Source: Ascidiella aspersa (taxonomy: Eukaryota). From it: a DNA stretch of 64,000 bases. The stretch's first letter is position 1; the number at the start of each line of letters is the position of its first letter. Under the pieces are notes generated by a model. It saw nothing but the letters and a program-made list of their open reading frames with translations, made no database searches and was not told the origin of the DNA. Positions 1 to 48,342 of this stretch are shown piece by piece. The stretch lies in NCBI GenBank assembly GCA_963924565.1, contig OZ004615.1:8122001-8186000 (forward strand), in the 5' to 3' direction. Made by a program: the position numbers and the translations under genes.

Positions 1-331
1 CCGACATCAAGTTAGAAATGATTTCTCTTCCGGCGATTTCAGACTGTACAACACTGTAGCCCATAAGTTTTAAATTTCGCTCGATAGCACAGACATAGTC
101 GAAATCATCAGGATGTCCAATCAAAGCAATATCCCCATCCGGGATGCCAGACGATGACACAGTTGAAGCTGTGTAGTAAGCTTGTGTATTATTTACATTA
201 TCCAGTGAAGATGTGCGTGTTGGTAAAAAAAATTTAAAGGAGCACATAATCAAATTAAATACCAATATATTGTTAAAGTAAAAGGATTATAAGTATAAAA
301 TCACCGAGATACCTGTAGAAGCAGCTTCCAT
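1..331 (-). CDS. 5' part (exon 1 at 313-331, partial exon 2 at 1-167) of a further TIR-SAMD9-like gene copy that continues beyond the left edge
   Basis: Near-identical to 30507-30836; reads MEAAST/ASTVSSSGIPDGDIALIGHPDDFDYVCAIERNLKLMGYSVVQSEIAGREIISNLMS with the same splice sites. Confidence 0.75.
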
Positions 332-10764: not shown

Positions 10765-11388
10765 CTACAACACACCGAATAGTCAAGAAAAACTTTGTTT
10801 TGGTTCAAATTTGCGAGGTATGTTTGTTACCCTCCTAATCTTGGTTTAGATTTGGTTTCCTACTTTTTATAAGCGACAACGTCTTATTATTTGCGAAAAA
10901 GTGTGTTGTGCAGCCATTTTTAATGTTTAAACAGGGTGTGGCCAAATAAAAAATACCTAAAAGACAAGAAATACTAGTTTAGTTAAAAATTGAAGTTAAA
11001 GTAATGTCATCTAAGTAAGGAAGAGGGATGAATGTCGTAAAAATAATTTTTGCGTTATCGCGGTCGACAGACAATTGGTTTTCAAAAGACTGGATGAAGT
11101 TCTTTTACAAGATTGTGTGCAACAACTTATCAAAATAGTTAAAATCACATTTGTTTCGCCAAAAGGTTCATTTAGAACAGGGGTTCTAAAACTGGGGTCC
11201 ATAGACCCCTTGGGGAACGTGAGCTCGTTTTAAGGGTCCATGAATGCCCAATTAAAAGACTAGTGTATATTTAGAAGTAATCAAACTTTCAAAGAAAAAG
11301 TTTAATAAAACTAAAACATTCTTGCACTGAATGTATTCAGACTTCATTTCACTTTCACATTTTTTGGACCGAAACTGCAGATTTTCAC

Positions 11389-11611
11389 CAGGATGTCCAA
11401 TCAAAGCAATATCCCCATCCGGGATGCCAGACGATGACACAGTTGAAGCTGTGTAGTAAACTTGTGTATTATTTACATTATCCAGTGAAGATGTGCGTGT
11501 TGGTAAAAAAAATTTAAAGGAGCACATAATCAAATTAAATACCAATATATTGTTAAAGTAAAAGGATTAAAAGTATAAAATCACCGAGATACCTGTAGAA
11601 GCAGCTTCCAT
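11389..11611 (-). pseudogene. Truncated TIR-SAMD9 copy: exon 1 (11593-11611) and first ~60 nt of exon 2, cut at a rearrangement junction
   Basis: Identity with 109-331 ends abruptly after DIALIGHP at ~11389; sequence further left is unrelated. Confidence 0.85.
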
Positions 11612-14600
11612 TTTCCACTATAAGCTTTCAATAACCATTTACTCTCAATATTATGTTTTCTGTAATAATAGATGAAAATATTGTCACTTACTTCGCCGAG
11701 CTATAATAATTAAAGATAAACTGTGTTAAATTAAATTATATCCTATAAATACCTACGCAACCTAACTGTAGAAGCTCTATATTCGTAGTAGGCTATACAT
11801 ATTTGCTTAACTCGCTAGCCTTTATTATTGAAAAACAAAACACACAGTGCTTTGAGTAAAAAGTCTTTCAAAATCAATTAAAAACTTGGAAAATGTATTT
11901 AGGTTTTTGTACAGGTTTCAAACCTATAGAAATAAATATAGCCTATAGTTTCTATAATTGCACTAAATTTCTAGTCTTTAATGAGCTAGACTACCACAGC
12001 AAAAGGTTAATTTTTCTATATATCTTTGATCTTATAAATGAAAAGAGCAATAAACGCGTCACATTTTTCTCTGGGCCCGGAAGCCGTTGTAGGCTTCTTA
12101 ATCAAAAAGCAAATTACGTTTGTTGCAAAGTTTACCAACGAAATTTCTGTGTTGAACTCGCTTTTGTCTCTCTTGTTTAATTATTTTGTTGTGGATAATA
12201 ATGTCCTAAAAATATCTAGGTTTACCTAGTTTCATGACTAAACATACAACTAATTTTCGGCAGTTTTGCGCGAGCATTCTAAACGGACAAACCTTTGGCG
12301 GTAAAATCACACAAAAGTTGTTTCTGGCCACTGTTTCATTTCATTGTGTTTTAGCAAAACATGCTTCTGCGCTTGTTTTTGTAAAGGCTTAACTGGCAGT
12401 TTCTGGTACAGCCTGTACTAACAGCCTAAAATTTATAATAATTAACCGTAGTTATGGAAAGTAAACTCCGCCGACCGGGGAATAACCTACGAGAATTTCC
12501 CCATGGTGGTGTTTTGAGCAGAATTAGAAATATTCACTGGGGTTTGCAACCATGGTAGCATTCTAGATCAGGAAACGAAATGTTTTATACTTTGCGCTGT
12601 TGTTCAAATGTTGCCAAAAAAATCTAAAACTCAAATTTGTCTTGCTGCTGCTAGAGCTTACCTAACTAAACCTACGCAACACAGAACAACAGACGATTCA
12701 TTTGCTCACACATCCACTGCAAACAAATACACATATACCTACACACAACGCTATATCTGATACTGGCTATTGTTCATATACTTCAAAAATATTTCGCAAT
12801 TCTGTAGATTACACTTCAATAGCAGAGTTGTGTATTACGCGAAGCATATGCAAACATACGACAGGTAAGTTATATATCCAGACTATATGGTAACATTACA
12901 ACAGGTAAGTTATATATCCAGACTGTATGCTAAACATTTTGGCGACATTCGGATTCTAAATTATTCGCAATGGTTATACAACGATTCGGAACTTTGGTGG
13001 AAACTTTTCCACAAATATTGCACTTTCGCTCTGACGTCGCTTCTGGTAAAACAAGACCGGTAACGCAATTTACAAGCATTCGTGACAAGGGCGACGAGTT
13101 TATGGTACATGTGCAAAGCGGACAGACGATTACAGATGGGCAAAACTAAAACTAAAAACGGTTCGGCGTGGTCGGTAGAAGAGAGCTGATTTCGTTTCTG
13201 ATCATTCAGCAGGCACGACCACCTTCTCTGCCGCTGCCTTTTCACAGGTGGTGTCTTTGCAGGTGCAAGACAAGATGGTTAACTGACTGTGCTTTCTTGG
13301 CGTGGCGTCGTCGCAAACCATCTCGTAGTTCCTCGACGCGGTGAAGGCCGGTTTGCAGCACTTGCACTTCCCTAGGGACAAACAGCGACAAAATTAGGTA
13401 GTTGTAGAAAGCTGTGCTTTTCTTCGGGGCAGCGCCTCGAGAAACTAGTGCTTTCTAGGGTATTTTTACCGCGGTTTTGTCTTTATACAGCCTTAGAGAG
13501 CAACAGGGCCCGCAGGCTAACCTTTTAGCGATTTTGTCTAATTTTACCACTTGGACTAGCGAACCCTTAAGTTATAGCTTTAGTTTACCAACAACGTTAC
13601 CAGTGTCTCTATAGGTTTTAAACAAACAAACAAATAGAAAAAATAAACGTTTAGATAAGCCGTTTTCAAACTGGGGTCCGCAGACCAAATGGAGTCCGTA
13701 CAACAGTTTCAGAGGGTCCGCAAGGAGAACAACTCTTTAAGGTTTTCAACATTAGGCTTTGGCGAATTTTGTAAACACTAGTCTATGTTTTAAACATGAT
13801 CTGTCATCATTATCCTCTTTAGTTATGCTTTATTATTCGATCATGTGGAGTGTTTTATGATGTCTCTTGTGACATCATAAAGCAACTATTATACTCTACT
13901 ATACCTGATGTCAGCGAATCGTTCGCCTTAGTTAGAAAGTTGTTACATTGGAAAGAATCGTCACTACACTAGTGTACAACAAGAAACATGGGTCAAATGA
14001 CCCTTGAACTTTTATAGGGCGGCGAAATATCAAAGTAATTGCAAAGGGTCCGCCAGGCAAATTTTCTGGAAAAGTTTAAGAACCGCTGGTTAAGATAACC
14101 CTCGTATCTACCATTATTCTATCACTCCTGTTTCGTGCCAGCTTAGTTGGTAGTTTGAATAATGACAACGAATTGACTGCGCTTGTTATCCCCAAACCAT
14201 GCACTGTAGCCAAAGAAGAGATTTTTACCTGCTATGAGACCCGACGTAGGGTTGATGTGCTGTGTGGTAGGGCACGATCTCGAGCAGTAGTTGATGTCGT
14301 AGGCCTTGTTTGTCCAGCAGCGGTGACCTTCGACGGTAGCATTGAGAATTACGTTCCGAGTGCCGACTGCGCACGGGTAGGGCGACTCTTCACCTTTAAA
14401 ATGGAAAGTAAAGTTTTAGTCTTGCTTTTATGCAGATGTTTCGTCGTTCACATAAACATCGTACAAACGCTGGGTAGCCCGAACTGGCCAAATTTGTCGT
14501 GCTCCGCGCAAATATAAATTGTATTTCTGGTGTGTCTTATCCTTTTAGATAAAATTGTTTTAGCATAAAAGTGTCCTGCGTCCTATAGCACTCTAAAAAT

Positions 14601-15436: not shown

Positions 15437-16881
15437 CACCCGATTCGATTTGTTTTCAACGCTTGTAGCGTTCGTATTAGGATAATTCGGGGCTTTGAAG
15501 CGTCTGTGTTAGATTATGTGTTAGAAATTAGACGCTTTAAGCGTAGTGTTTTAGAACAGGATACAGGCGAACAGCGAATGCGCAGACTAATCATGCATAA
15601 CGAAACGTTGCCAAGCGATGCAAACTACAGATTTTTTATCTTGAACAGTTTTGGAAATTAGAAATGCAGAAATGTTTATTGTTTATAACTGTACCAAGTT
15701 AATGCGATGTTTATAATTTTGGCGGTGGTCTAGAATCTTACCACAATAACTAAATCAACGCACAGTATTTGGATTAGGGTGCTAGTTAGCGTTTGGATTT
15801 GGGTGGGTCAAGTATGGCGCTCTTTCACTATTGTACGTCAAAATTAATAAAAAAATTTTTTTCTTCAAATGTCGCATACCACAACACATATTGTTTGGGT
15901 TAGGGTGCGGGTTTGCGTTTGGTTGAGGGTGGGTCAAGTTATTATTAATAATAAACATAATATTACTTGACCCACCCTCACCCAAACGCTAACCCGCACC
16001 CTAATCCAAACAATATGCGTTGTGGTATGCGGTATTATTATTATTTTTTTTTTGCATAACTTTTCACGTACAATAGTGAAAGAGCGCCTCAAGTATTAGT
16101 ATTAAATAAAGAATATTATAATACTTCACCCACCCACACCCAAACGCTAACTCGCACCCTAACTCAAATTTTGTGCCTTGATTTCATAACTGTGGTAGGA
16201 TTCTAGACCAGCGCCGAAAGCAGACCAGAGATACACTTTTTCGTGCTGGTCTAAAGTCCTACCACAACGCGCATTATTTCGGTTAGGGTTTAAAATGAAT
16301 ATAAGAATACTTGACCCACCCACACCCAAACACTAACTCTCGCCGCCACTAACCCTAATATTGTGCGTTGATTTAATAATGTGGTAGGATTCTAGACCAG
16401 CGCCCTTTTTTAACTTTGTTGCACCTGCATCCGCGTGTTCTGTTATACTTTCCAGGCTGGGGTAAGGGTGGTTCAAGTATTATCATTAATAGTATTGCTT
16501 AACCTATACCCAAACCGAAACGCTAACCCGCACCCTAACCCAAATAATGTTCGCTAAGGTAGGCTTCAGCAACAATAAAAGCTTTTATCTGCTATTTACT
16601 GGGTAAAATTATAAACATCGCATTAACTTGGTACAGTTATAAACATTTCTGCATTTCTAATATCCAAAACTGTACAAGATAAAAAATCTGTAGTTTGCAT
16701 CGCTTGGCAACGTTTCGTTATGCATGATTAGTCTGCGCATTCGCTGTTCGCCTGTATCCTGTTCTAAAACACTACGCTTAAAGCGTCTAATTTCTAACAC
16801 ATATTCTAACACAGACGCTTCAAAGCCCCGAATTATCCTAATACGAACGCTACAAGCGTTGAAAACAAATCGAATCGGGTG
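15437..16881. mobile_element. Non-autonomous foldback-type DNA transposon with ~285-bp terminal inverted repeats (P/Galileo-like TSD length)
   Basis: Ends CACCCGATTCG...CGAATCGGGTG; 7-bp TSD TCGATGC (15430-15436, 16882-16888); empty site at ~52430-52436. Confidence 0.88.
15816..16088. mobile_element. Palindromic MITE (Merlin-like, GG...CC ends) nested in a related MITE (15721-16215) inside the foldback element
   Basis: Ends GGCGCTCTTTCACTATTGTACG...CGTACAATAGTGAAAGAGCGCC; 8-bp TSD TCAAGTAT (15808-15815, 16089-16096). Confidence 0.8.
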
Positions 16882-24840: not shown

Positions 24841-27800
24841 CTAGCTAATAACATACGCACAATACTGACATTTGAAAGAGATGTTTTGCTGATTAAGAGT
24901 CAGCCTTTCGCTTTTTCGATTGCACGAAGGACATTCGACTTTCTCGATCAACCGGACGCAGTGAGCCTCTGCTGCGTTAAAGGTGTCAAAAGCTACGTGG
25001 AATTCAACACGGCACCCCGATTTGCCTTGCATCTGATACCTTTTCGGAGTGAAATAAATGTATAACTTTTGTTGAAATTTCAGATCCAATAATATTAATC
25101 CAAAGATTGGATGGTTTGCCTTTTTAACGGTGCCTGTGCAAACTTGAAGTTGTTGCACAGCCTGAGTATTTGCCCAAGTTTTTTGCGTTTCATTCCACTC
25201 TCCTAATTGTTGTCTTTGAATAAATTTTTTAATGGTGTTTGATTTTTCATTGGTAAGAAATTCCAAACGTCTTCCTTTAACAAATGTTTGCGAGCGCATC
25301 TTTTGGCGTAACGTTTCAATTAGTTCAATATCATCGTTGTTTGGTTTATCAGAAGATACTACAATTGCAAATTTGATCGCGTACAGGTAAAGATCGGCAT
25401 AACCACGCTCGTTACGACTTCTCCAATCTGTCACAAATCGAAATACCACCTCTTGTAAGTTGTAACATTTTTCTGACAAAGCTGGATGACGAATATACTG
25501 GAGCCAGTTGTACATATCAAGATTGACAGAGACATCAATTGGGTGGGAATAAATGGTGGACAACAAATTTTCGTACATAGTGACAACATCCCTTCGACTC
25601 TGATTTTTATCAATGTAACCAACTGTTTCGTTTCCTTCTATTGCCCTTCTGGTATTTCGTAATTGATTGCGAACAAGGGGGATATTACGATGAATATTTT
25701 CAATTTCAAACAACTGAACCCTGTCATCTTTAAAATATAATTTGTAAGATATGAGTGCCTCTTGATATTTTGATTTGGCAAGTTCCTGTTTCCTTGATTT
25801 TAGCTTGCATTCTTCCAAAAGATCACCACATATGAAGTTCGAATTTCTGATAAACTCAGCAAGTCTGGGATAGGTTTCATTTAGTTTTTCGACATTAGAG
25901 CAGCCACCATGTCGCTTATCCACATACTCAGCAAAACGAAGTCGAAGCTTTATTTCGCCCATATAACCAAAAGAAAAATTGTCAATTGCCATTTGTCTGG
26001 ATTTGTGAAAATGGGAAATCGAAAGTTCGGCTTGGTCAAGGGCACTTTCTATATTTTCGTTACCTCCGTTTAGAAGTTGACTAGCATGTCTAGAACAACA
26101 ATTTGCAAACATGTTGTGAAATTGACAGGATTTTTGCAAAGTTGGATTGTGCTTTTCAAGGTCAAGTGCCTTTAATAGGTAAGTTTCTGCGCGTTGAAAG
26201 TCGCCAAACGCAGTGCACACTCTTCCGGCATGTCCATTGTAATCTGAATTATCGGGAAATGCGTCGACCAGAGCTACCATTACTTTTATTTTATTATCAT
26301 TTTCTGGAATATCATTTATAAGTGGAGCAAAGTTTACTTTCGCCTTATCGTCTGGTGTAGATTCACGCCGGATTAGCAGTAAATAAATGGAATGTCCAAT
26401 TCCCGACCAAGGTTGATTTCGACCACAAATCTGTTTAAAAATTTCAATCAGATCGATCACATGGGTGTGAAGAGATTGGCGAACGGATGGCAACAATGGG
26501 GCATAAAACGGTTCAGCCACCCTTTGATCATATTCGCTAGAGGGAGAAAGTGCCAACTGCAATATTTCTCTAGCCACCATTGGATACGATATTGTCCATT
26601 CATGTTCGTTTTCGATAAAAAATTGATAGGCTCTGTAAGGAAGGTCGGTCATTTTTACGAATTTCATCGAATTAGGGTGAAGGAAAGCCCTGAACGCATT
26701 CCTGCTGATTCCAGTCTGTCCGTAATAATCCAGAAGTGAAAGGTAGACCAAAATACGTTGCCACTTTGATAGTTCAGCTTTTTTACAAAAAAATCCCGTA
26801 ACGTAGCTCCTAATGCCGGTGTACTCCTCATTAAACGCGTACAAACCAAATTCGAACATTTGTGGGGCATCATATTTTTGATCAGCGCGAAGTTGAAGCT
26901 CTGCCATTTTACAAGAACCGTTTGAAACAAAATTGTTCAAAATTGTTATCAGACGTGAAGCTTCGTCCGAAGATGTCGATTCACTAAGGCTTAGTGAATC
27001 AGATTTTAAATCACTTCTGTTTTCGATTAGGTCCGACTTTCGTTCAACAAGTAGCACCACGAGTTCGATGTGTTGTTTCGCTTGATCGACGATGTTCTTC
27101 TTATCGACGCCGTCAAGTAAGATGAGCAACGGCAACCTGGTCTTTTCATACAGAATTTTTAGATTTTTTACAAGATCAGCCGTGGTAGGATAGGGTGGTT
27201 TAACTTCAATACATGGAATAACTTGTCGCAAAGACCACAGTATTTGTCGTGCGAGAGTGCTACCCCCACTTCCTGGAGTATGAATCAGCCTTAATATTTT
27301 TGGCTTCCATTCTTGATTAATCTCTTGTTTTATCTTTTCACACGCTTCATTTTCAATATCTCTTTTTATAGCAACATTACCCCTTGCAATGTGATCCCAT
27401 GTTGCTACACCACCTTTGTGAAATGACTCTTCTTTGGTTTTGCGTAACCTCTCATCGCTAACTTCTTCTGTTATGTTTATTTCCGTTGACAAAATATCCA
27501 TATAAGAAGGAAATTCTTTGGTTTTGATTTTGATTTTCTTTAATTCATCGTTAGAGGTCTTTCCAGGGACGGTCACGACTCCATACAATCCTGTATTTAA
27601 CATGGTTGGTCCAACCTTTTCAAAACAGAGACTAACTTCATAAGGTGAAATTTGCACACACGTAGAATCTAGTTTATACTTGCTCAGTGTTGTAAACAAG
27701 TGTGAGTCAGATTTAGGCGTTTCGGGAACGCAAAAAATCAGTTTAACGGGAAAAGTCTTTATATTCCCAATGGTGAATTGTTTTCGAATTAACTGTAATA

Positions 27801-28616
27801 ATCGATCAAGAATGTAGCATGAAATGGAATCTGTTTTGTACCAGAGCAAAACAAAGCATGCCGTTTTGTCTGGACAACAATACTGAGCTGCTTTGGTCAC
27901 AACTGTTTCCAAAGCGGTATCGTATTTATCTTCCCAATCCGAGTAATCTGTGACGCACTTATTGGTTATCGCAAGCCAATTGGTTTTGTCAGCTTCTAAA
28001 TCATCGACGTAGTCATCCACATTTCTTCGCGACACCTCTTTTTGCCTGAAATCTAATGAGTCAAACAGACACTCATCCTCATCTTGACAGTCCAAGTCGA
28101 ACACCTGTATCCACGGAATTGCTGATATTCCGCCTAACTTGTTGTTTGGTACGCTAGTTGTGACTAGAAAGTATGCTTGACTGCCATCGACTTTGTCAAA
28201 CATTTTTAAAATCGAAAACATCGAATCTTTATTGGTAGATGCAGATGAAGGCAATTTATCTTTTATCCAAGTTTCGTTTTGTCGTTGTGTGGTAGCTATT
28301 TCGCTTCTATGGCGCAGTGCATCACGAACTCTTGTCATCCAGCTCGGATGAATAAGAGCCCCTTCACGTTTTATTTTAATCATAGTATTATCAACAATGT
28401 GAATATAGTCACTTGAATCAACAAATGAACTAAAATCTCCCAGATTTAAAGCATCAAAACTACCGAATCGTGCTTCATATTGTGATTTTGTGTCATCTAG
28501 ACACTTCCGTGCCAGTTGTGAATCTTCCTTGGGATTAACGATGCTGCTGATTAGAAGATTAGCACAGAAAGCTCTTCTTTCTCTTTGGGTGTTTAAGCTT
28601 TCTATATCTGAAATAC
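24841..28616 (-). CDS. Single 3.8-kb last exon encoding the SAMD9-like core (copy 1)
   Basis: 1262-aa uninterrupted ORF; acceptor ttgcatacag|GT (alternative in-phase acceptor 9 nt downstream). Confidence 0.92.
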
Positions 28617-30836
28617 CTGTATGCAACAAGTTGGATATTAATAAAACATATTTTTCCGAATTTTCAATGCCGGTGACCCTGATTTAGTTTAGGTAGAAAT
28701 AAAAGTATAGTAAACAAGACCAAAAACTGAAAAGTACAAAGACAAGATGTATCTAGATGGTAGGTTAATTGGTTGCATTTCAGTTTAGTTTAAATTACTT
28801 TATTTTTTCAACTGAATGAATTTATGCAGATAAAAACGGAAATGTTTTGCTTGGGGGCAATACATTTGTCTGATTTGCCAACAATTACCGATTTATATGT
28901 GAATTAACTTTCTGAGCGATACGGCCTTTCCTTTTTGCCTGCCTGTCGTGGTGCAAGTTTTAATGCTGTTTTTGTGTAAAAGAACGAGTATTTTAGGTGA
29001 GTTGCGTTGTGTATTGTATGGTTTTGCCAGCCCTGATAATCTGACAATGTGCAAAATGTAACCTTTGCCAAATTTACTACGATGACACATTGGTCAGTTC
29101 GCCCAGCATTAACGACCTTTTGTATAAAACGTCTTGTAGTAATAATAACACTGCTTTTTTTTTGCACTACCTTGCTTTGTAAATTATTAAAGCGTAGTTT
29201 ATATCACGCCTTCTTACCTACACTTATGCGTGTGACATCATAATGATGCATTGGTAATTAAATTGCTTAAATTACGCGAATTTCTCCTGATTCTCCCGGT
29301 TCCCCAAATAGTTAGAACGTTATTATCATGCCAAATACATTTCCCGGAAACATGTAAAGCGACCTACATTTTTTGTTTTTAAAATATGTATAATAAAGAG
29401 GCAGGTCTACGTAGTCGGAGTCTGAACTCTAGCACGACAACATCAGACCAACCGAGTCCAAAGTCCAACGTGAAAATGCTTACCAAATTTGTAACCGATA
29501 AGGTACAAACTATAAATCGTAGGAGTAAAATACCATATAGTTAAAATAATATTCTAACTACTATTGTGGGTGTATTAGATTTATTACACGCATATGAGTA
29601 GATTGCTGTACATCCGCCCTATTTAAGTTACGTAAATGGGTGAAATACAGGCTGTCGACACAGGACTCAGGAGTCAAAGAAATTGGGGAATTGGCCAGGA
29701 TCGGATTTGAGAGTGGTACTACAGTTTATTTTTTCAGGCGGAGTTGGATTGTTTTCAACCTACTCCGCAGCCCTATTGGTCAGTAACAACTAACAAGAAC
29801 AATAAATTGCTTAAAAATTCTGCACGACACTCATGACCGCATTACAGAGAAAACCTAAAAGAGTTGTTGGGCAGTACGCAGCCGAACCAAATAAATAAGG
29901 AGCGTTACAATAATTTACAGTGGCGTTAACAACACTTCTGTATTTCTATAAATAGAAAATATTTTATAACTGACCTATTTCTTTTAACGCTTCGGTAAAC
30001 TGCGCAATTCTTTCTGCGGTTTCTTCAGCTGAGCATCCTGCTTTTATGTGAAACCCGCCTCGAAATTCTGAACTGGATGGTTTACTTTTGTCGCTTTCGT
30101 AAATGAGAAGATACAAATCTTTCAGCAACAACTTGGATTGATACAATGGCTCACAGAATTTATGAAACTGTTTGCATGTATTGTCCGTGAGCACCAAAAT
30201 ACTGAAAGGTAAAAATTGACATGTTCGATAGCACAGGTTAAGTTTTCTTAGCTTACACAGAAAAATTAGAAATTAATCGATTAAAACATTTAATACACGT
30301 TATAACTTCGGAAAGGATTACTAAAATCAGTCGGCCAAATCAGGATTTTCGTGCAAGTAAGTCCAGGCTAGAAAAACTCATTTAAAGGGGATCAACAGTT
30401 CGTTTTCAGCAACTGAAACATTAATTTTTTTCTTTCGGTAATCCTTTCGTAGGCTTTATTTGCAGAAATAAAAGGCTTACCTAGATAATAATGCATGGTG
30501 AACGCCCGACATCAAGTTAGAAATGATTTCTCTTCCGGCGATTTCGAACTGTACAACACTGTAGCCCATAAGTTTTAAATTTCGCTCGATAGCACAGACA
30601 TAGTCCAAATCATCAGGATGTCCAATCAAAGCAATATCCCCATCCGAGATGCCAGACGATGACACAGTTGAAGCTGTGTAGTAAGCTTGTGTATTATTTA
30701 CATTATCCAGTGAAGATGTGCGTGTTGGTAAAAAAAATTTAAAGGAGCACATAATCAAATTAAATACCAATATATTGTTAAAGTAAAAGGATTAAAAGTA
30801 TAAAATCACCGAGATACCTGTAGAAGCAGCTTCCAT
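24841..30836 (-). CDS. SAMD9L-like: TIR-domain SAMD9/SAMD9L-like STAND NTPase, intact copy, ~1404 aa (TIR - possible LOTUS-like - SIR2-like - P-loop NTPase - TPR - OB-fold - Zn ribbon)
   Basis: Exons 30818-30836, 30481-30673, 29975-30201 and 24841-28616 join in frame (phases 1, 2, 1). SAMD9 hallmarks: YFLVT...IPWIQVFDLD, F..GG..W, lysine-less Walker A HTPGSGGSTLARQILWSLR, Walker B LLILLD, TPR-like GDFQRAETYLLKAL, OB-like terminal VEFHVAF. Confidence 0.85.
29975..30673 (-). CDS. Two exons encoding a TIR-like domain (copy 1)
   Basis: DIALIGHPDDLDYVCAIERNLKLMGYSV (bA-aA-bB), AGREIISNLMSGV (BB loop-aB), SILVLTDN (bC), KFCE (aC), LYLLIYE (bD), FHIK...EETAERIAQF (bE-aE). Confidence 0.65.
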
Positions 30837-31729: not shown

Positions 31730-32339
31730 ATGGTGGTGTTTTGAGCAGAATTAGAAATATTCACTGGGGTTTGCAACAACGGTAGCATTCTATATCAGGA
31801 AACCAAATCTTTTATACTTTGCGCTGTTGTTTAAATGTTGCCAAAAAAATCTAAACCTAATCTATGTTTTGCTGCTGCTAGAGCTTATCTAACTAAATCT
31901 ACGCAACACAGAACAACAGTCGATTCATTTGCCTACACATACACTCTGTAGATTACACTTCAATAGCAGAGTTGTGTATTACGCGAAGCATATGCAAACA
32001 TACGACAGGTAAGTTATATATCCAGACTATATGGTAACATTACAACAGGTAAGTTATATATCCAGACTGTATGCTAAACATTTTGGCGACATTTGGATTC
32101 TAAATTATTCGCAATGGTTATACAACGATTCGGAACTTTGGTGGAAACTTTTACACAAATATTGCACTTTCGCTCTGACGTCGCTTCTGGTAAAACAAGA
32201 CCGGTAACGCAATTTACAAGCATTCGTGACAAGGGCGACGAGTTTATGGTACATGTGCAAAGCGGACAGACAGATGGGCAAAACTAAAACTAAAAACGGC
32301 TCGGCGTGGTCGGTAGAAGAGAGCTGATTTCGTTTCTGA

Positions 32340-35300
32340 TCATTCAGCAGGCACGACCACCTTCTCTGCCGCTGCCTCTTCACAGGTGGTGTCTTTGTAG
32401 GTGCAAGACAAGATGGTTAACTGACTGTGCTTTCTTGGCGTGGCGTCGTCGCAAACCATGTCGTAGTTCCTTGACGCGGTGAAGGCCGGTTTGCAGCACT
32501 TGCACTTCCCTAGGGACGAACAGCGACAAAATTAGGAAGTTGTAGAAAGCTGTGCTTTTCTTCGGGGCAGCGCCTCGAGAAACTAGTGCTTTCTAGGGTA
32601 TTTTTACCGCGGTTTTGTCTTTATACAGCCTTAGAGAGCAACAGGGCCCGCAGGCTAACCTTTTAGCGATTTTGTACAATTTTACCACTTGGACTAGCGA
32701 ACCCTTAAGTTATAGCCTTAGTTTACCAACAACGCTACCAGTGTCTCTATAGGTTTTAAACAAACAAACAAATAGAAAAAATAAACGTTTAGATAAGCCG
32801 TTTTCAAACTGGGGTCCGCAGACCAAATAGAGTCCGTACAACAGTTTCAGAGGGTCCGCAAGGAGAACAACTCTTTAAGGTTTTCAACATTAGGCTTTGG
32901 CGAATTTTTTAAACACTAGTCTATGTTTTAAACATGATCTGTCATCATTATCCTCTTTAGTTATGCTTTATTATTCGATCATGTGGAGTGTTTTATGATG
33001 TCTATTGTGACATCATAAAGCAACTATTATACTCTACTACCTGATGTCAGCGAATTGTTCGCCTTAGTTAGAAAGTTGTTACATTGGAAAGAATCGTCAC
33101 TACACTAGTGTACAACAAGAAACATGGGTCAAATGACCCTTGAACTTTTATAGGGCGGCGAAATATCAAAGTAATTGCAAAGGGTCCGCCAGGCAAATTT
33201 TCTGGAAAAGTTTAAGAACCGCTGGTTAAGATAACCCTCGTATCTACCCTTATGCGATCACTCCTGTTTCGTGCCAGCTTAGTTGGTAGTTTGAATAATG
33301 ACAACGAATTGACTGCGCTTGTTATCCCCAAACCATGCACTGTAGCCAAAGAAGAGATTTTTACCTGCTATGAGACCCGACGTAGGGTTGATGTGCTGTG
33401 TGGTAGGGCACGATCTCGAGCAGTAGTTGATGTCGTAGGCCTTGTTTGTCCAGCAGCGGTGACCTTCGACGGTAGCATTGAGAATTACGTTCCGAGTGCC
33501 GACTGCGCACGGGTAGGGCGACTCTTCACCTTTAAAATGGAAAGTAAAGTTTTAGTCTTGCTTTTATGCAGATGTTTCGTCGTTCACATAAACATCGTAC
33601 AAACGCTGGGTAGCCCGAACTGGCCAAAATTGTCGTGCTCCGCGCAAATATAAATTGTATTTCTGGTGTGTCTTATCCTTTTTGATAAAATTGTTTTAGC
33701 ATAAAAGTGTGCGTCCTATAGCACTCTAAAAATGAAACTTTGGGGTTGAACGATATAACGCCGCTTTGCGCAAGTCGATAACATTGTTGCAATGTGTGGT
33801 GTACTAAAGGTTACTCTTTATGACGATTTAGATGTGACGCTACAGATGTCACTTTTTGACGTCTTTCATGAAAAGAAAAATGATATTGTCATTCGCAAAA
33901 GAAAACTCTTAGATGCGTTAATCAGTTCAACTGTGTTGTACCGCCATAGGGGAAAAACTAAAATTTACTTTTATTCAGGTCCTCTTAGTCGTTATGCCAG
34001 CCCTATAGCTTTTCGTCAAATAACTGATTCCAAATCAACCTGTTTAAGGTAGCTTTTTACGCTGATCGTGTGAATTTGTTAGTACCACCAACTGTAAATA
34101 ACCCTCAAGAAAGCAAACTCGTATACTTACAGTACTTGCAGCAGCCAGAAGTAGAAAGGTTGGCAATAATCCGTCCACCCCTCTGTGCAACATATAACAG
34201 TTTGGTTTAGTTTAAACAGAAATAAATCAATAAAATGTTTTTTAGGTAGATCAGACAGGCGGTCCATGACTAATCCCTTAATTTCAAACATTTTCAAATA
34301 GTCGTAATAGGCATTTAATAAAAAAAACCGATGCAGATATTTGCCCGATTTTTGTTATTTACATTGTCCCGACAGTGGTGATTAGAATAACTGCAATTTT
34401 TCGAAGAATAAGAATACTAGTTCTCGACAAAATATACCCGTTCAGATGGGACTCTTGCACAAGATGCATACTTACCTCAACGCAAGGTTGGTTTATCGGC
34501 TCGCACCCGTACTTATTGTAGGAGACGATTTGCGGACATTTGGTGGTTGTATTGTATTCGCAGCTCGATGCCACCCGATTCGATTTGTTTTCAACGCTTG
34601 TAGCGTTCGTATTAGGATAATTCGGGGCTTTGAAGCGTCTGTATTAGAACATGTGTTAGAAATTAGACGCTTTAAGCGTAGTGTTTTAGAACAGGATACA
34701 GGCGAACAGCGAATGCGCAGACTAATCATGCATAACGAAACGTTGCCAAGCGATGAAAACTACAGTTTTTTTTATCTTGTACAGTTTTGGATATTAGAAA
34801 TGCAGAAATGTTTATTGTTTATAACTGTAACAAGTTAATGCGATGTTTATAATTTTGGCGGTGGTCTAGAATCTTACCACAATAACTAAATCAACGCACA
34901 GTATGTGGATTAGGGTGCTAGTTAGCGTTTGGATTTGGGTGGGTCAAGTATGGCGCTCTTTCACTATTGTACGTAAAAATTAATAAAAATTTTTTTTCTT
35001 CAAATGTCGCATACCACAACACATATTGTTTGGGTAGGGCGCGGGTTTGCGTTTGGTTGAGGGTGGGTCAAGTTATTATTAATAATAAACATAATATTAC
35101 TTGACCCACCCTCACCCAAACGCTAACCCGCACCCTAACCCAAACAATATGTGTTGTGGTATGCGGTACTATTATTTTTATTTTTTTTGCATAACTTTTC
35201 ACGTACAATAGTGAAAGAGCGCCTCAAGTATTAGTATTAAATAAAGAATATTATAATACTTCACCCACCCACACCCAAACGCTAACTCGCACCCTAACTC

Positions 35301-36612
35301 AAATTTTGTGCCTTGATTTCATAACTGTGGTAGGATTCTAGACCAGCGCCGAAAGCAGACCAGAGATACACTTTTTTCGTGCTGGTCTAAAGTCCTACCA
35401 CAACGCGCATTATTTCGGTAAGGGTTAAAAATGAATATAAGAATACTTGACCCACCCACACCCAAACACTAACTCTCGCCGCCACTAACCCTAATATTGT
35501 GCGTTGATTTAATAATGTGGTAGGATTCTAGACCAGCGCCCTTTTTTAACTTTGTTGCACCTGCATCCGCGTGTTCTGTTATACTTTCCAGGCTGGGGTA
35601 AGGGTGGTTCAAGTATTATCATTAATAGTATTGCTTAACCTATACCCAAACCGAAACGCTAACCCGCACCCTAACCTAAATAATGTTCGCTAAGGTAGGC
35701 TTCAGCAACAATAAAAGCTTTTAACCTGCTATTTACTGGGTAAAATTATAAACATCGCATTAACTTGGTACAGTTATAAACATTTCTGCATTTCTAATAT
35801 CCAAAACTGTACAAGATAAAAAATCTGTAGTTTGCATCGCTTGGCAACGTTTCGTTATGCATGATTAGTCTGCGCATTCGCTGTTCGCCTGTATCCTGTT
35901 CTAAAACACTACGCTTAAAGCGTCTAATTTCTAACACATAATCTAACACAGACGCTTCAAAGCCCCGAATTATCCTAATACGAACGCTACAAGCGTTGAA
36001 AACAAATCGAATCGGGTGTCGATGCATAACAGGAGTCGTTTCGGATAGAGCTTCCAATCTAAAAACAACGGAGCATGAGGTAGTAAACATTTGTAACTGC
36101 TGTCGTCTTGAATCGCAAGCCAAAATTTGCACAAAAAATGACTAAAAACGTGGCACATTTGAGTTTATAAATAACGGTTTTCGTTCCGCATTGCAAAAAG
36201 ATCTTATAAAAGGATCGTCGCCAAAAAAAAGGACGTTCGTGTACAATGACAGTAAGTACGCTGCGAATTGCAGTCAGGGAAACATTTCAGGGAAACAATT
36301 AATAATGTTTCGATTTCGTCTACCACTCTTCATTAAATTTCCTGGAAAACATCTAAAATTGATGCGTACATCGGAGAAAAAGGTTGAATCCGCCATGTGA
36401 AGAACATACAGAGACTTACCGGGAAAGCGATTTCGTTTTGCACGCACTTGTCGCAGACCCAGTCGAACTCAGGGCAGCACTCACTGACGGCGTTGGTACG
36501 TACGCGCCTCAAGCCGATGCCCCAGGTTATGTTCCACTGGACGCAGACCGACTGCAGCATGGCGTTGTTCATACATTGGTACCGGGCCAGTCTTGCTATT
36601 GCGCTGTTCCAG
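32340..36612 (-). pseudogene. Duplicated last five exons of the mucin/vWF-like gene, disrupted
   Basis: Matches 49920-53050. Foldback insertion at 34572-36018; net 17-nt deletion at ~36580 removes CCPKY and shifts the frame. Confidence 0.88.
34572..36018. mobile_element. Second copy of the foldback element with nested MITE (34952-35223)
   Basis: TSD TCGATGC (34565-34571, 36019-36025); inverted arms ~34572-34856 and ~35742-36018; same insertion site as 15437-16881. Confidence 0.88.
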
Positions 36613-42542: not shown

Positions 42543-45500
42543 CTAGCTAATAACATACGCACAATACTGACATTTGAAGGAGATGTTTTGCTGATTAAGA
42601 GTCAGCCTTTCGCTTTTTCGATTGCACGAAGGACATTCGACTTTCTCGATCAACCGGACGCAGTGAGCCTCTGCTGCGTTAAAGGTGTGAAAAGCTACGT
42701 GGAACTCAACACGGCACCCCGATTTGCCTTGCATCTGATACCTTTTCGGAGTGAAATAAAGGTATATCTTTTGTTGAAATTTCAGATCCAATAATATTAA
42801 TCCAAAGAGTGGATGGTTTGCCTTTTTAACGGTGCCTGTGCAAACTTGAAGTTGTTGCACAGCGTGAGTATTTGCCCAAGTTTTTTGCGTTTCATTCCAC
42901 TCTCCTAATTGTTGTCTTTGAATAAATTTTTTAATGGTGTTTGATTTTTCATTGGTAAGAAATTCCAAACGTCTTCCTTTAACAAATGTTTTCGAGCGCA
43001 TCGTTTGGCGTAACGTTTCAATTAGTTCAATATCATCGTTGTTTGGTTTATCAGAAGATATTACAATTGCAAATTTGATCGCGTACAAGTAAAGATCGGC
43101 ATAACCACGCTCGTTACGACTTCTCCAATCTGTCACAAATCGAAAGACCACCTCTTGTAAGTTGTAACATTTTTCTGACAAAGCTGGATGACGAATATAC
43201 TGGAGCCAGTTGTACATATCAAGATTGACAGAGACATCAATATGGTGGGAATAAATGGTGGACAACAAATTTTCGTACATAGTGACAACATCCCTTCGAC
43301 TCTGATTTTTATCAATGCAACCAACTGTTTCGTTTCCTTCTATTGCCCTTTTGGTATTTCGTAATTGATTGCGAACAAGGGGGATATATCGATGAATATT
43401 TTCAATTTCAAACAACTGAACCCTGTCATCTTTAAAATAGAAATTGTAAGACATGAGTGCATCTTGATATTTTGATTTGGCAAGTTCCTGTTTCCTTGAT
43501 TTTAGCTTGCATTCTTCCAAAAGATCACCACATATGAAGTTCGAATTTCTGATAAACTCAGCAAGTCTGGGATAGGTTTCATTTAGTTTTTCGACATTAG
43601 AGCAGCCACCATGTCGCTTATCCACATACTCAGCAAAACGAAGTCGAAGCTTTATTTCGCCCATATAACCAAAAGAAAAATTGTCAATTGCCATTTGTCT
43701 GGATTTGTGAAAATGGGAAATCGAATGTTCGGCTTGGTCAAGGGCACTTTCTACATTTTCGTTACCTCCGTTTAGAAGTTGACTAGCATGTCTAAAACAA
43801 CAATTTGCAAACATGTTGTGAAATCGACAGGATTTTTGCAAAGTTGGATTGTGCTTTTCAAGGTCAAGTGCCTTTAATAGGTAAGTTTCTGCGCGTTGAA
43901 AGTCGCCAAACGCAGTGCACACTCTTCCGGCATGTCCATTGTAATCTGAATTATCGGGAAATGCGTCGACCAGAGCTACCATTACTTTTATTTTATTATC
44001 ATTTTCTGGAATATCATTTATAAGTGGAGCAAAGTTTACTTTCGCCTTATCGTCTGGTGTAGATTCACGCCGGATTAGCAGTGAATAAATGGAATGTCCA
44101 ATTCCCGACCAAGGTTGATTTCGACCACAAATCTGTTTAAGAATTTTAATCAGATCGATCACATGGGTGTGAAGAGAGTGGCGAACGGATGGCAACAATT
44201 GAGCATAAATCGGTTTAGCCACCGTTCGATCATATTCGCTAGAGGGAGAAAGTGCCAACTGCAATATTTCTCTAGCCACCAGTGGATACGATATTGTCCA
44301 TTCATGTTCGTTTTCGATAAAAAATTGATAGGCTCTGTAAGGAAGGTCGGTCATTTTTACGAATTTCATCGAATTAGGGTGAAGGAAAGCCCTGAACGCA
44401 TTCCTGCTGATTCCTGTCTGTCCGTAATAATCCAGAAGTGAAAGGTAGACCAAAATACGTTGCCACTTTGATAGTTCAGCTTTTTTACAAAAAAATCCCG
44501 TAACGTAGCTCCTAATGCCGGTGTACTCCTCATTAAACGCGCACAAACCAAATTCGAACATTTGTGGGGCATCATATTTTTGATCAGCGCGAAGTTGAAG
44601 CTCTGCCATTTTACAAGAACCGTTTGAAACAAAATTGTTCAAAATTGTTATCAGACGTGAAGCTTCGTCCGAAGATGTCGATTCACTAAGGCTTAGTGAA
44701 TCAGATTTTAAATCACTTCTGTTTTCGATTAGGTCCGACTTTCGTTCAACAAGTAGCACCACGAGTTCGATGTGTTGTTTCGCTTGATCGACGATGTTCT
44801 TCTTATCGACGCCGTCAAGTAAGATGAGCAACGGCAACCTGGTCTTTTCATACAGAATTTTTAGATTTTTTACAAGATCAGCCGTGGTAGGATAGGGTGG
44901 TTTAACCTCAATACATGGAATAACTTGTCGCAAAGACCACAGTATTTGTCGTGCGAGAGTGCTACCCCCACTTCCTGGAGTATGAATCAGCCTTAATATT
45001 TTTGGCTTCCATTCTTGATTAATCTGTTGTTTTATCTTTTTACACGCTTCATTTTCAATATCTCTTTTTATAGCAACATTACCCTTTGCAATGTGATCCC
45101 ATATTGCTACACCACCTTTGTGAAATGACTCTTCTTTGGTTTTGCGTAACCTCTCATCGCTAACTTCTTCTGTTATGTTTATTTCCGTTGACAAAATATC
45201 CATATAAGAAGGAAATTCTTTAGTTTTGATTTTGATTTTCTTTAATTCATCGTTAGAGGTCTTTCCAGGGACGGTCACGACTCCATACAATCCTGTATTT
45301 AACATGGTTGGTCCAACCTTTTCAAAACAGAGACTAACTTCAGAAGGTGAAATTTGCACACACGTAGAATCTAGTTTATACTTGCTCACTGTTGTAAACA
45401 AGTGTGAGCCAGATTTAGGCGTTTCGGGAACGCAAAAAATCAGTTTAACGGGAAAAGTCTTTATATTCCCAATTGTGAATTGTTTTCGAATTAACTGTAA

Positions 45501-45923
45501 TAATCGATCAAGAATGTAGCAAGAAATGGAATCTGTTTTGTACCAGAGCAAAACAAAGCATGCCGTTTTGTCTGGACAACAATACTGAGCTGCTTTGGTC
45601 ACAACTGTTTCCAAAGCGGTATCGTATTTATCTTCCCAATGCGAGTAATCTGTAACGTCCTTATCGGTTATCGCAAGCCAATTGGTTTTGTCAGCTTCTA
45701 AATCATCAACGTAGTCATCCACATTTCTTCGCGACACCTCTTTTTGCCTGAAATCTAATGAGCCAAACAGACACTCATCCTCATCTTGACAGTCCAAGTC
45801 GAACACCTGTATCCACGGAATTGCTGATATTCCGCCTAACTTGTTGTTTGGTACGCTAGTTGTGACTAGAAAGTATGCTTGACTGCCATCGACTTTGTCA
45901 AACATTTTTAAAATCGAAAACAT
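42543..45923 (-). CDS. SAMD9L-like: SAMD9-like STAND NTPase core, copy 2 (1126-aa open frame, disconnected from its TIR exons)
   Basis: About 96% identical to copy 1 (about 42 substitutions counted by eye); no internal stops; starts at the in-frame ATG of MFSILK. Confidence 0.75.
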   Translation of the reverse strand: MFSILKMFDKVDGSQAYFLVTTSVPNNKLGGISAIPWIQVFDLDCQDEDECLFGSLDFRQKEVSRRNVDDYVDDLEADKTNWLAITDKDVTDYSHWEDKYDTALETVVTKAAQYCCPDKTACFVLLWYKTDSISCYILDRLLQLIRKQFTIGNIKTFPVKLIFCVPETPKSGSHLFTTVSKYKLDSTCVQISPSEVSLCFEKVGPTMLNTGLYGVVTVPGKTSNDELKKIKIKTKEFPSYMDILSTEINITEEVSDERLRKTKEESFHKGGVAIWDHIAKGNVAIKRDIENEACKKIKQQINQEWKPKILRLIHTPGSGGSTLARQILWSLRQVIPCIEVKPPYPTTADLVKNLKILYEKTRLPLLILLDGVDKKNIVDQAKQHIELVVLLVERKSDLIENRSDLKSDSLSLSESTSSDEASRLITILNNFVSNGSCKMAELQLRADQKYDAPQMFEFGLCAFNEEYTGIRSYVTGFFCKKAELSKWQRILVYLSLLDYYGQTGISRNAFRAFLHPNSMKFVKMTDLPYRAYQFFIENEHEWTISYPLVAREILQLALSPSSEYDRTVAKPIYAQLLPSVRHSLHTHVIDLIKILKQICGRNQPWSGIGHSIYSLLIRRESTPDDKAKVNFAPLINDIPENDNKIKVMVALVDAFPDNSDYNGHAGRVCTAFGDFQRAETYLLKALDLEKHNPTLQKSCRFHNMFANCCFRHASQLLNGGNENVESALDQAEHSISHFHKSRQMAIDNFSFGYMGEIKLRLRFAEYVDKRHGGCSNVEKLNETYPRLAEFIRNSNFICGDLLEECKLKSRKQELAKSKYQDALMSYNFYFKDDRVQLFEIENIHRYIPLVRNQLRNTKRAIEGNETVGCIDKNQSRRDVVTMYENLLSTIYSHHIDVSVNLDMYNWLQYIRHPALSEKCYNLQEVVFRFVTDWRSRNERGYADLYLYAIKFAIVISSDKPNNDDIELIETLRQTMRSKTFVKGRRLEFLTNEKSNTIKKFIQRQQLGEWNETQKTWANTHAVQQLQVCTGTVKKANHPLFGLILLDLKFQQKIYLYFTPKRYQMQGKSGCRVEFHVAFHTFNAAEAHCVRLIEKVECPSCNRKSERLTLNQQNISFKCQYCAYVIS

Positions 45924-45997
45924 CGAATCTTTATTGGTAGATGCAGATGAAGGCAGTTTATCTTTTATCCAAGTTTCGTTTTGTCGTTGTGTGGTAG

Positions 45998-48342
45998 CTA
46001 TTTTCCCAGTTGTGAATCTTCCTTGGGATTAACGATGCTGCTGATTAGAAGATTAGCACAGAAAGCTCTTCTTTCTCTTTGGGTGTTTAAGCTTTCTATA
46101 TCTGAAATACCTGTATGCAACAAGTTGGATATTAATAAAACATATTTTTCCGAATTTTCAATACCGGTGACCCTGATTTAGTTTACGTAGAAATAAAAGT
46201 ATAGTAAACAAGACCAAAAACTGAAAAGTACAAAGACAAGATGTATCTAGATGGTAGGTTAATTGGTTGCATTTCAGTTTAGTTTAAATTACTTTATTTT
46301 TTCAACTGAATGAATTTATGCAGATAAAAACGGAAATGTTTTGTTTGGGGGCAATACATTTGTTACATCTGATTTGCCAACAATTACCGATTTATATGTG
46401 AATTAACTTTCTGCGCGATACGGCCTTTCCTTTTTTCCTGCCTGTCGTGGTGCAAGTTTTAATGCTGTTTTTGTGTAAAAGAACGAGTATTTTAGGTGAG
46501 TTGCGTTGTTTATTGTATGGTTTTGCCAGCCCTGATAATCTGACAATGTGCAAAATGTAATCTTTGCCAAATTTACTACGATGACACATTGGTCAGTTCG
46601 CCCAGCATTAACGGCCTTTTGTATAAAACGTCTTGTAGTAATAATAACACTGCTTTTGTTTTGCACTAACTTGCTTTGTAAATTATTAAAGCGTAGTATA
46701 TATCACGCCTTCTTACCTACACTTATGCGTGTGACATCATAATGATGCATTGGTAATTAAATTGCTTAAATTACGCGAATTTCTCCTGATTCTCCCGGTT
46801 CCCCAAATAGTTAGAACGTTATTATCATGCCAAATACATTTCCCGGAAACATGTAAAGCGACCTACATTTTTTGTTTTTAAAATATGTATAATAAAGAGG
46901 CAGGTCTACGTAGTCGGAGTCTGAACTCTAGCACGACAACATCAGACCAACCGAGTCCAAAGTCCAACGTGAAAATGCTTACCAAATTTGTAACCGATAA
47001 GGTACAAACTATAAATCGTAGGAGTAAAATACCATATAGTTAAAATAATATTCTAACTACTATTGTGGGTGTATTAGATTTATTACACGCATATGAGTAG
47101 ATTGCTGTACATCCGCCCTATTTAAGTTACGTAAATGGGTGAAATACAGGCTGTCGACACAGGACTCAGGAGTCAAAGAAATTGGGGAATTGGCCAGGAT
47201 CGGATTTGAGAGTGGGACTACAGTTTATTTTTTCAGGCGGAGTTGGATTGTTTTCAACCTACTCCGCAGCCCTGCTGGTCAGTAACAACTAACAAGAACA
47301 ATAAATTGCTTAAAAATTCTGCACGACACTCATGACCGCATTACAGAGAAAACCTAAAAGAGTTGTTGGGCAGTACGCAGCCGAACCAAATAAATAAGGA
47401 GCGTTACAATAATTTACAGTGGCGTTAACAACACTTCTGTATTTCTATAAATAGAAAATATTTTATAACTGACCTATTTCTTTTAACGCTTCGGCAAACT
47501 GCGCAATTCTTTCTGCGGTTTCTTCAGCTGAGCATCCTGCTTTTATGTGAAACCCGCCTCGAAATTCTGAACTGGATGGTTTACTTTTGTCGCTTTCGTA
47601 AATGAGAAGATACAAATCTTTCAGCAACAACTTGGATTGATACAATGGCTCACAGAATTTATGAAACTGTTTGCATGTATTGTCCGTGAGCACCAAAATA
47701 CTGAAAGGTAAAAATTGACATGTTCGATAGCACAGGTTAAGTTTTCTTAGCTTACACAGAAAAATTACAAAGAAATTAATCGATTAAAAAATTATATAAT
47801 ACACGTTATAACTTCGGAAAGGATTACTAAAATCAGTCGGCCAAATCAGGATTTTCGTGCAAGTAAGTCCAGGCTAGAAAAACTCATTTAAAGGGGATCA
47901 ACAGTTCGTTTTCAGCAACTGAAACATTAATTTTTTTCTTTCGGTAATCCTTTCGTAGGCTTTATTTGCAGAAATAAAACGCTTACCTAGTTAATAATGC
48001 ATGGTGAACGCCCGACATCAAGTTAGAAATGATTTCTCTTCCGGCGATTTCGAACTGTACAACACTGTAGCCCATAAGTTTTAAATTGCGCTCGATAGCA
48101 CAGACATAGTCCAAATCATCAGGATGTCCAATCAAAGCAATATCCCCATCCGAGATGCCAGACGATGACACAGTTGAAGCTGTGTAGTAAGCTTGTGTAT
48201 TATTTACATTATCCAGTGAAGATGTGCGTGTTGGTAAAAAAAATTTAAAGGAGCACATAATCAAATTAAATACCAATATATTGTTAAAGTAAAAGGATTA
48301 AAAGTATAAAATCACCGAGATACCTGTAGAAGCAGCTTCCAT
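45998..48342 (-). CDS. Copy 2 N-terminal part: predicted 183-aa TIR-only product ended by a frameshift (or a pseudogene)
   Basis: Exons 48324-48342, 47987-48179, 47474-47700 and 45998-46110. The 210 nt at 28302-28511 of copy 1 are replaced by 2 nt, giving ...KEDSQLGK-TAG (stop at 45998-46000). Confidence 0.7.

Follow-up and report, generated by a model that had tools for sequence, protein, structure and literature searches.

A SAMD9-family STAND protein of the ascidian Ascidiella aspersa with a predicted N-terminal TIR fold and eroded NADase pocket motifs

In the window, the whole 64,000-nucleotide stretch of Ascidiella aspersa DNA analyzed here, we identified a minus-strand gene of four exons (copy 1) that codes for a 1404-residue SAMD9-family STAND protein. 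The predicted architecture runs from a TIR-like domain through a LOTUS-like winged helix, a dead SIR2 domain, STAND, TPR, and OB to a zinc ribbon, with no AlbA tRNase, and the NADase pocket motifs of the TIR-like domain are eroded. We lean somewhat toward a reading in which this AlbA-less protein is an oligomerizing immune sensor and its TIR-fold N terminus a non-catalytic adaptor. Human SAMD9 restricts viruses through its AlbA tRNase, and ascidians lie in the sister group of the vertebrates. We found no earlier description of an ascidian TIR-SAMD9 fusion in the literature searched.

Gene structure and tandem copies

The exon structure follows from a contig of run X3 that splices 30818 to 30673, 30481 to 30201, and 29975 to 28616, all three joints being GT-AG; the corresponding introns of copy 1 are 144, 279, and 1358 bases long. 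Translation begins at the ATG at 30836 on the minus strand (coding part of exon 1, 30818..30836). Exon 2 (30481..30673) is predicted from the secondary structure of an orthologue model to supply βA-αA-βB-BB loop-αB of the TIR-fold domain, and exon 3 (29975..30201, 227 bp) to supply βC-αC-βD-αD-βE-αE; everything from the winged helix onward lies in exon 4 (24841..28616), with the stop codon at 24841-24843. The X3 contig has copy-0-like letters, and what it documents is the common exon structure and not expression of copy 1. In raw RNA run X4 (~6% of the run), exon 4 reads are sparse and those for exons 2 and 3 are zero.

The window contains a tandem duplication of ~17.5 kb and two long minus-strand frames. 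Copy 2 (42543..48342, minus strand) has the same exons as copy 1, with a 208-bp deletion early in exon 4 (46003-46006) that shifts the frame after the TIR; the predicted product is 183 residues long and comprises the TIR only. Contigs of X1 break at both edges of this deletion, and one X2 contig spans the intact form. Copy 0 enters the window with exon 1 and most of exon 2 (1..331, minus strand), the remainder lying to the left, and has an open frame of 1404 residues with 97% identity to copy 1. A truncated fourth copy (11385..11889, minus strand) consists of exon 1 and the start of exon 2. Because the copies are 96-97% alike, their identity is uninformative about constraint; dN/dS between them is 0.78-0.86, not significantly different from 1, and positive selection is unsupported. 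The SAMD9-like family has at least six loci in this genome, and three divergent paralogues are predicted, from sequence only, to have the same two upstream exons.

Several other features of the window accompany these copies. A mucin/VWF-like gene that is very rich in cysteine and has long, repeated exons occupies 53416-62253 and 32334-36600 on the minus strand, and a Pfam scan of its 53419-55191 segment gave no match. In run X3, contig depth is very high over spliced minus-strand exons at 32334-36420; these exons are probably the 3′ end of the cysteine-rich gene, duplicated together with the SAMD9-like gene. A second tandem duplication lies inside the cysteine-rich gene (58267-60400 versus 61865-63998, 2.1 kb, 96.7%). 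Inverted-repeat elements of ~500 bp at 6568-7063, 15717-16219, and 34853-35354 have very high read depth and are probably MITE-type transposons.

Domain architecture of the protein

The core encoded by exon 4 aligns to human SAMD9 structures (E 2.9e-22). A core search recovered 1339 cluster representatives at E<=1e-3, 1220-residue AlbA-bearing relatives included, and a separate homology search with exon 4 returned five matches, three of them named SAMD9-like. Pfam adds a match to nSTAND_NTPase5 (E 3.8e-8, just under the cut-off), and the SIR2-like, STAND, and TPR parts that make up a SAMD9-family core are all found. Alignment to SAMD9 places the Walker A at 27256..27282 (minus strand), in the non-canonical form of the family (GGT/S with an upstream His), here with His592 upstream and Gly in place of Lys (GGS-T), and the Walker B region at 27109..27129 (minus strand). 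A weak TPR_7 match (E 0.05) marks a TPR repeat at 26146..26226 (minus strand). Farther on, position and homology suggest a C-terminal OB fold, and a motif scan identified a C-terminal CxxC pair, a predicted zinc ribbon (24859..24933, minus strand), which is common to 49 of 170 proteins scanned.

The SIR2-like domain (approximately 27588..28173, minus strand), bounded by alignment to SAMD9 structures, has none of the motifs that mark active SIR2s (GAGxS, TTNxD, and HG/NG) and is predicted to be non-catalytic; with these motifs absent, we ruled it out as an NADase effector of the Avs5/ThsA type. A custom AlbA HMM matched 87 of the 170 proteins, the window protein not among them, and the gap between the winged helix and the SIR2-like domain is only ~50 residues. 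No AlbA was found in the paralogues, at least six loci whose long exons were tested. The annotation of the family in Mekhedov 2017 records loss of the AlbA_2 tRNase in some members (PMC5445408).

Relative to SAMD9/SAMD9L, as set out in PMC5445408 and in a structure paper (PMC13600222), the window protein is alike in its SIR2-like domain, its STAND module with His and a Gly-for-Lys Walker A, its TPR, and its C-terminal region. It differs in having neither SAM nor AlbA tRNase, in adding an N-terminal TIR-fold domain, a LOTUS-like winged helix, and the C-terminal CxxC pair, and in having one acidic residue rather than two in the Walker B region. The SAMD9-like SIR2-STAND-TPR layout is also that of Avs5 and Avs9 as described in PMC12931631 and PMC12680541, where the effectors are an active SIR2 NADase and an AlbA, respectively; the window protein has neither intact. 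A scan of bacterial genomes with the core profile confirmed 0 of 75 candidates.

Between the TIR-fold domain and the SIR2-like domain lies a LOTUS/OST-HTH-like winged-helix domain (residues 148-243; 28327..28614, minus strand; AF2 pLDDT 83.6). Its structural matches are LOTUS domains (MARF1, TDRD5, and Tejas, Z 7.4-7.8), tied with PadR-type wHTH domains (Z 7.8-8.7); Foldseek returned no match at E<=0.001, and the homologous region of the relative P0018 gives a Pfam OST-HTH match (E 0.005). A match to SidK (E 0.04) was taken as chance. A similar winged helix also stands N-terminal of AlbA in SAMD9-like proteins of lancelet, brachiopod, and starfish (relatives P0015, P0017, P0018, P0023, and P0029), and it is absent from the 2017 family annotation table (PMC5445408).

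For the N-terminal domain, the prediction is a TIR fold. Profile scans with Pfam are silent here: separate exon frames of copy 1 give no TIR match, no TIR, TIR_2, or TIR_3 score for the window exons exceeds the cut-off, and a TIR_2 scan of the genome gives 28 matches, 22 of them over the cut-off, with none at this locus; the best Pfam score is TIR_2 (E 0.0064) for one of 13 alignment members. We did not count this silence against a TIR because the domain is intron-split and divergent, and we set aside the missing match as a disproof. The same TIR-like domain is unbroken in Clavelina P0165 and P0014 and in Styela P0013 and P0042, and occurs as exons in the metagenome locus L032. The Clavelina lepadiformis protein XP_076824011.1 (P0165) is an end-to-end orthologue with 29% identity, and the fold was modeled on its domain, rather than on the window's own spliced domain, with a nine-row alignment that includes the window exons. 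The model has five strands and five helices (pLDDT 81, pTM 0.77), as in the flavodoxin-like TIR fold, and its nearest structures are TIRs: the top six Foldseek rows (E 3e-5 to 2.5e-4) and the top 11 of 50 VIA rows (Z 12.3-10.7, rmsd 2.7-3.6, 113-128 residues aligned; best non-TIR 10.5). ESM Atlas features led to TIR clusters (0.93), with no usable match for exon 3 alone, and HHalign against the genome's own TIR exons gave E 5e-5, versus 0.33 for the reversed profile. The TIR label of the first-pass annotation thus stands on fold matches of the orthologue model and on ESM Atlas features, and fails in the Pfam and TIR_2 scans of the locus itself.

Comparison with known TIRs places the domain among enzymes and adaptors alike. 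Enzymatic TIRs (SARM1, SNC1/RPS4, and bacterial) have the same fold as the orthologue model (Z 10.8-11.5), and adaptor TIRs (TLR1/2/6, MAL/TIRAP, and the ‘cryptic TIR’ of BCAP) tie with or exceed them (Z 11.4-11.8). The BB-loop Gly and αB Asn of the window protein align with TLR1/6; unlike the adaptors, the window domain sits on a cytosolic STAND sensor and has no Pfam TIR, TIR_2, or TIR_3 match over the cut-off. A likeness to the BCAP cryptic TIR was dropped, as BCAP ranks second by fold but within the tie, with no confirmation by sequence.

Carriers of this domain form a narrow group. The Clavelina proteins XP_076824011.1 and XP_076819710.1 and the Styela clava proteins XP_039262635.1 and XP_039249109.2 have the same TIR-like domain and the same core, and are annotated only as uncharacterized or SAMD9-like. 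Every named carrier is an ascidian, and word-seeded searches for the domain found no carriers beyond the proteins already collected. In a quick tree of 41 cores, hand-chosen from the 170, every TIR-bearing row falls inside one 13-row clade (SH-aLRT 100) with only ascidians among its named members, seven of the 13 rows being single-exon frames with N termini mostly not covered; the clade's neighbors (lancelet, brachiopod, and echinoderm) carry AlbA. SAMD9-family N termini on record are SAM, CARD, Death, Pyrin, FIIND, and kinase; the annotation table of Mekhedov 2017 has no TIR, LOTUS, or OST-HTH, and its Ciona protein is annotated with SIR2 and AAA only (PMC5445408). The main text of Legrand 2025 has no occurrence of TIR or tunicate, and title and abstract searches combining ascidian with SAMD9, or SAMD9 with ‘TIR domain’, returned no paper on the fusion, subscription papers and bioRxiv supplements lying outside their scope. 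Weak RHIM matches (E 0.002-0.004) were seen at the N termini of two other SAMD9-like proteins, P0019 and P0030, one of them from abalone.

Glu88 and the NADase pocket

From the letters alone, the first-pass annotation had placed a glutamate at the NADase catalytic position and proposed an enzymatic rather than a scaffold TIR. The glutamate is present: plus-strand CTC at 30150-30152 reads GAG on the minus strand and codes for residue 88, within exon 3 (30201-29975). The peptide quoted around it is there as well, with nine residues between Asn78 and Glu88, and copy 2 is identical over this stretch (Glu codon 47651-47649). Copy 0 retains the Glu but, like the X3 contig, has Tyr86 where copy 1 has Phe86 (codon 30156..30158, minus strand).

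HMMER likewise put Glu88 on the catalytic column without gaps, aligning it to the Glu of SNC1, TLR6, and TLR1 (weak matches, E 0.2-0.5), and HHalign did so with profiles of the genome's own TIRs. Against this register, hydrophobic periodicity prefers one shifted by -2 (r 0.63 versus 0.31); Phe86 then occupies the catalytic column, and paralogue L004 alone has Glu there. The -2 register fits L004, the unshifted register fits P0013 and L002, and the window protein fits neither; it scores -7.3 against the genome's canonical αC in the unshifted register. In BLOSUM scoring the family mean was positive at no offset; offsets 0 and -4 tied, and the -2 signal came mainly from L004. The nine reference TIRs of this scoring were picked by pattern, which makes motif counts on them circular, and a set of six canonical TIRs of the genome was used for the motifs instead. 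In the P0165 model, residues 59-72 form one unbroken helix, whose last turn contains the Glu.

Of the 130 residues of the domain, 11 (8.5%) are Glu, so that meeting a Glu at a loosely defined spacing is nothing unusual, and a single Glu alone is minor evidence. Nor is it conserved as the catalytic Glu of an NADase TIR should be: Glu88 is kept in three or four of nine homologues, depending on alignment mode, and lost in five or six, with Asn at this position in the nearest paralogue, and 57-60 of the 130 columns are at least as uniform. Among the relatives, Clavelina P0165 and L032 (24-37% segment identity) have it in common with the window protein, and Styela P0013 has C-x-x-E-L in the unshifted register under some alignments.

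In SARM1, mutation of D-V-F-I-S-Y568, D594, or W638 lowers activity, the residue context here coming from the mutagenesis primer table of PMC8266388. The window βA reads D-I-A-L-I-G; by eye, Phe49 stands at the place of D594 and the BB loop is three residues shorter than that of SARM1. None of the nine homologues has the Ser or Tyr (columns 23 and 24) or the Trp (column 84, Glu-4). Equivalents of F-x-S-Y568, D594, and W638 are absent. In six of six canonical TIRs of the genome, the S, C, E, and A of βC-αC are invariant; E alone is identical in the window protein, whose αC has Lys at the Cys position, Gln at the Ala position, and Pro89 directly after Glu88. Whereas the Glu falls on the same profile column as in enzymatic TIRs, their pocket residues and W/C-x-x-E-L-x-x-A context are absent, and identity to them is only 12-19%. 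The BB-loop Gly (G601 in SARM1) is better kept, as Gly53 in seven of nine homologues, and adaptor TIRs have this Gly too; the best-kept polar residues are Asp19, Arg54, Asn59, His66, Lys124, and Glu141, each in six to eight of nine. TLR1 and TLR6, which are regarded as scaffolds, also carry Glu at this column. With Glu in a minority of homologues, the other pocket residues missing in all nine, and the same Glu in TLR1 and TLR6, the enzymatic proposal of the first-pass annotation is weakly supported, and Glu88 is likely what remains of the catalytic Glu after the pocket decayed.

Possible roles of the TIR-fold domain

The adaptor reading borrows its mechanism from human SAMD9, which is described in PMC13600222 as ATP-bound and autoinhibited, opening through SIR2/SIR2 and OB/SIR2 contacts, with clustering of the N-terminal effectors proposed. 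By homology, the resting ascidian protein would likewise be closed and ATP-bound; a viral or nucleic-acid cue, acting via the TPR, OB, or winged-helix parts, could open it, and SIR2-SIR2 and OB-SIR2 contacts could then build an oligomer. The clustered TIRs might bring in a TIR-containing partner through the conserved BB-loop/αB surface, an adaptor output that would parallel the presumed role of Death and CARD on other invertebrate SAMD9s. Besides the ungapped alignment of Glu88 and its presence in P0165 and L032, two considerations weigh against an adaptor. TLR4, long considered a scaffold, produces cADPR according to a preprint (bioRxiv 10.64898/2026.04.20.719644), and a ‘scaffold’ label is therefore not safe; moreover, an enzymatic TIR would fill the effector role left vacant by the loss of AlbA and the dead SIR2.

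Alternatively, the TIR-fold domain could be an internal regulatory or decoy module, holding the sensor closed or acting as bait for pathogen anti-TIR proteins, a reading we hold possible at best. The output would then lie elsewhere, for example in hetero-oligomers with an AlbA-bearing or Glu-intact paralogue, which we regard as equally tentative. Clavelina P0014 carries AlbA in addition to the TIR-like domain, so that an effector role for the TIR is not required; the six loci of the family, the TIR-only product that copy 2 would yield, and the near-neutral divergence of the tandem copies are also consistent with such a module. Against it, no AlbA-bearing paralogue was found among the loci tested, and what STAND proteins carry at the N terminus is usually an effector or an adaptor.

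An enzymatic effector in the place of the tRNase seems unlikely to us; in this reading, oligomerization would activate the domain as an NADase or cADPR synthase, and Glu88 would be its catalytic residue. The ungapped position of Glu88, its occurrence in several ascidian genera, the SARM1, plant, and bacterial enzymes among the top fold matches of the orthologue model, and the lack of another evident catalytic effector in the protein all favor an enzyme, but the F-x-S-Y, the D594 equivalent, and the Trp/Cys before the Glu are absent, Pro follows it, the αC score and the hydrophobic register speak against it, and most homologues have lost the Glu. Even with the Glu, few animal TIRs were active (12 of 61; bioRxiv 10.64898/2026.04.20.719644). 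It is similarly doubtful that this animal protein parallels plant TIR-NLRs and the bacterial Avs proteins that deplete NAD. In the fullest, and likewise improbable, version, a TIR enzyme whose pocket is non-canonical would have replaced the tRNase and would use Glu88 for NAD+ depletion or a cyclic-ADPR signal, paralogues diversifying the active site and the frameshifted copy providing a free TIR; if true, an enzymatic TIR-SAMD9 would be the chordate counterpart of plant TIR-NLR resistosomes.

An AlbA-less ascidian clade with a TIR-fold domain that Pfam does not see would mean that the SAMD9 chassis can drive another output. Glu is variable among the relatives, Styela P0013 additionally has a Death domain, and the family provides a set of natural variants (Glu, Asn, Ala, or shifted Glu; AlbA or Death present or absent) on which the requirements for enzymatic activity in a TIR could be examined. 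One paralogue (L004:4346-4570; G000:C2:26540346-26540570) has S-x-x-C-x-x-E-L, two residues out of register with Glu88; this is the family's best match to the canonical αC motif, and if any TIR of the family is still active, L004 is the strongest candidate.
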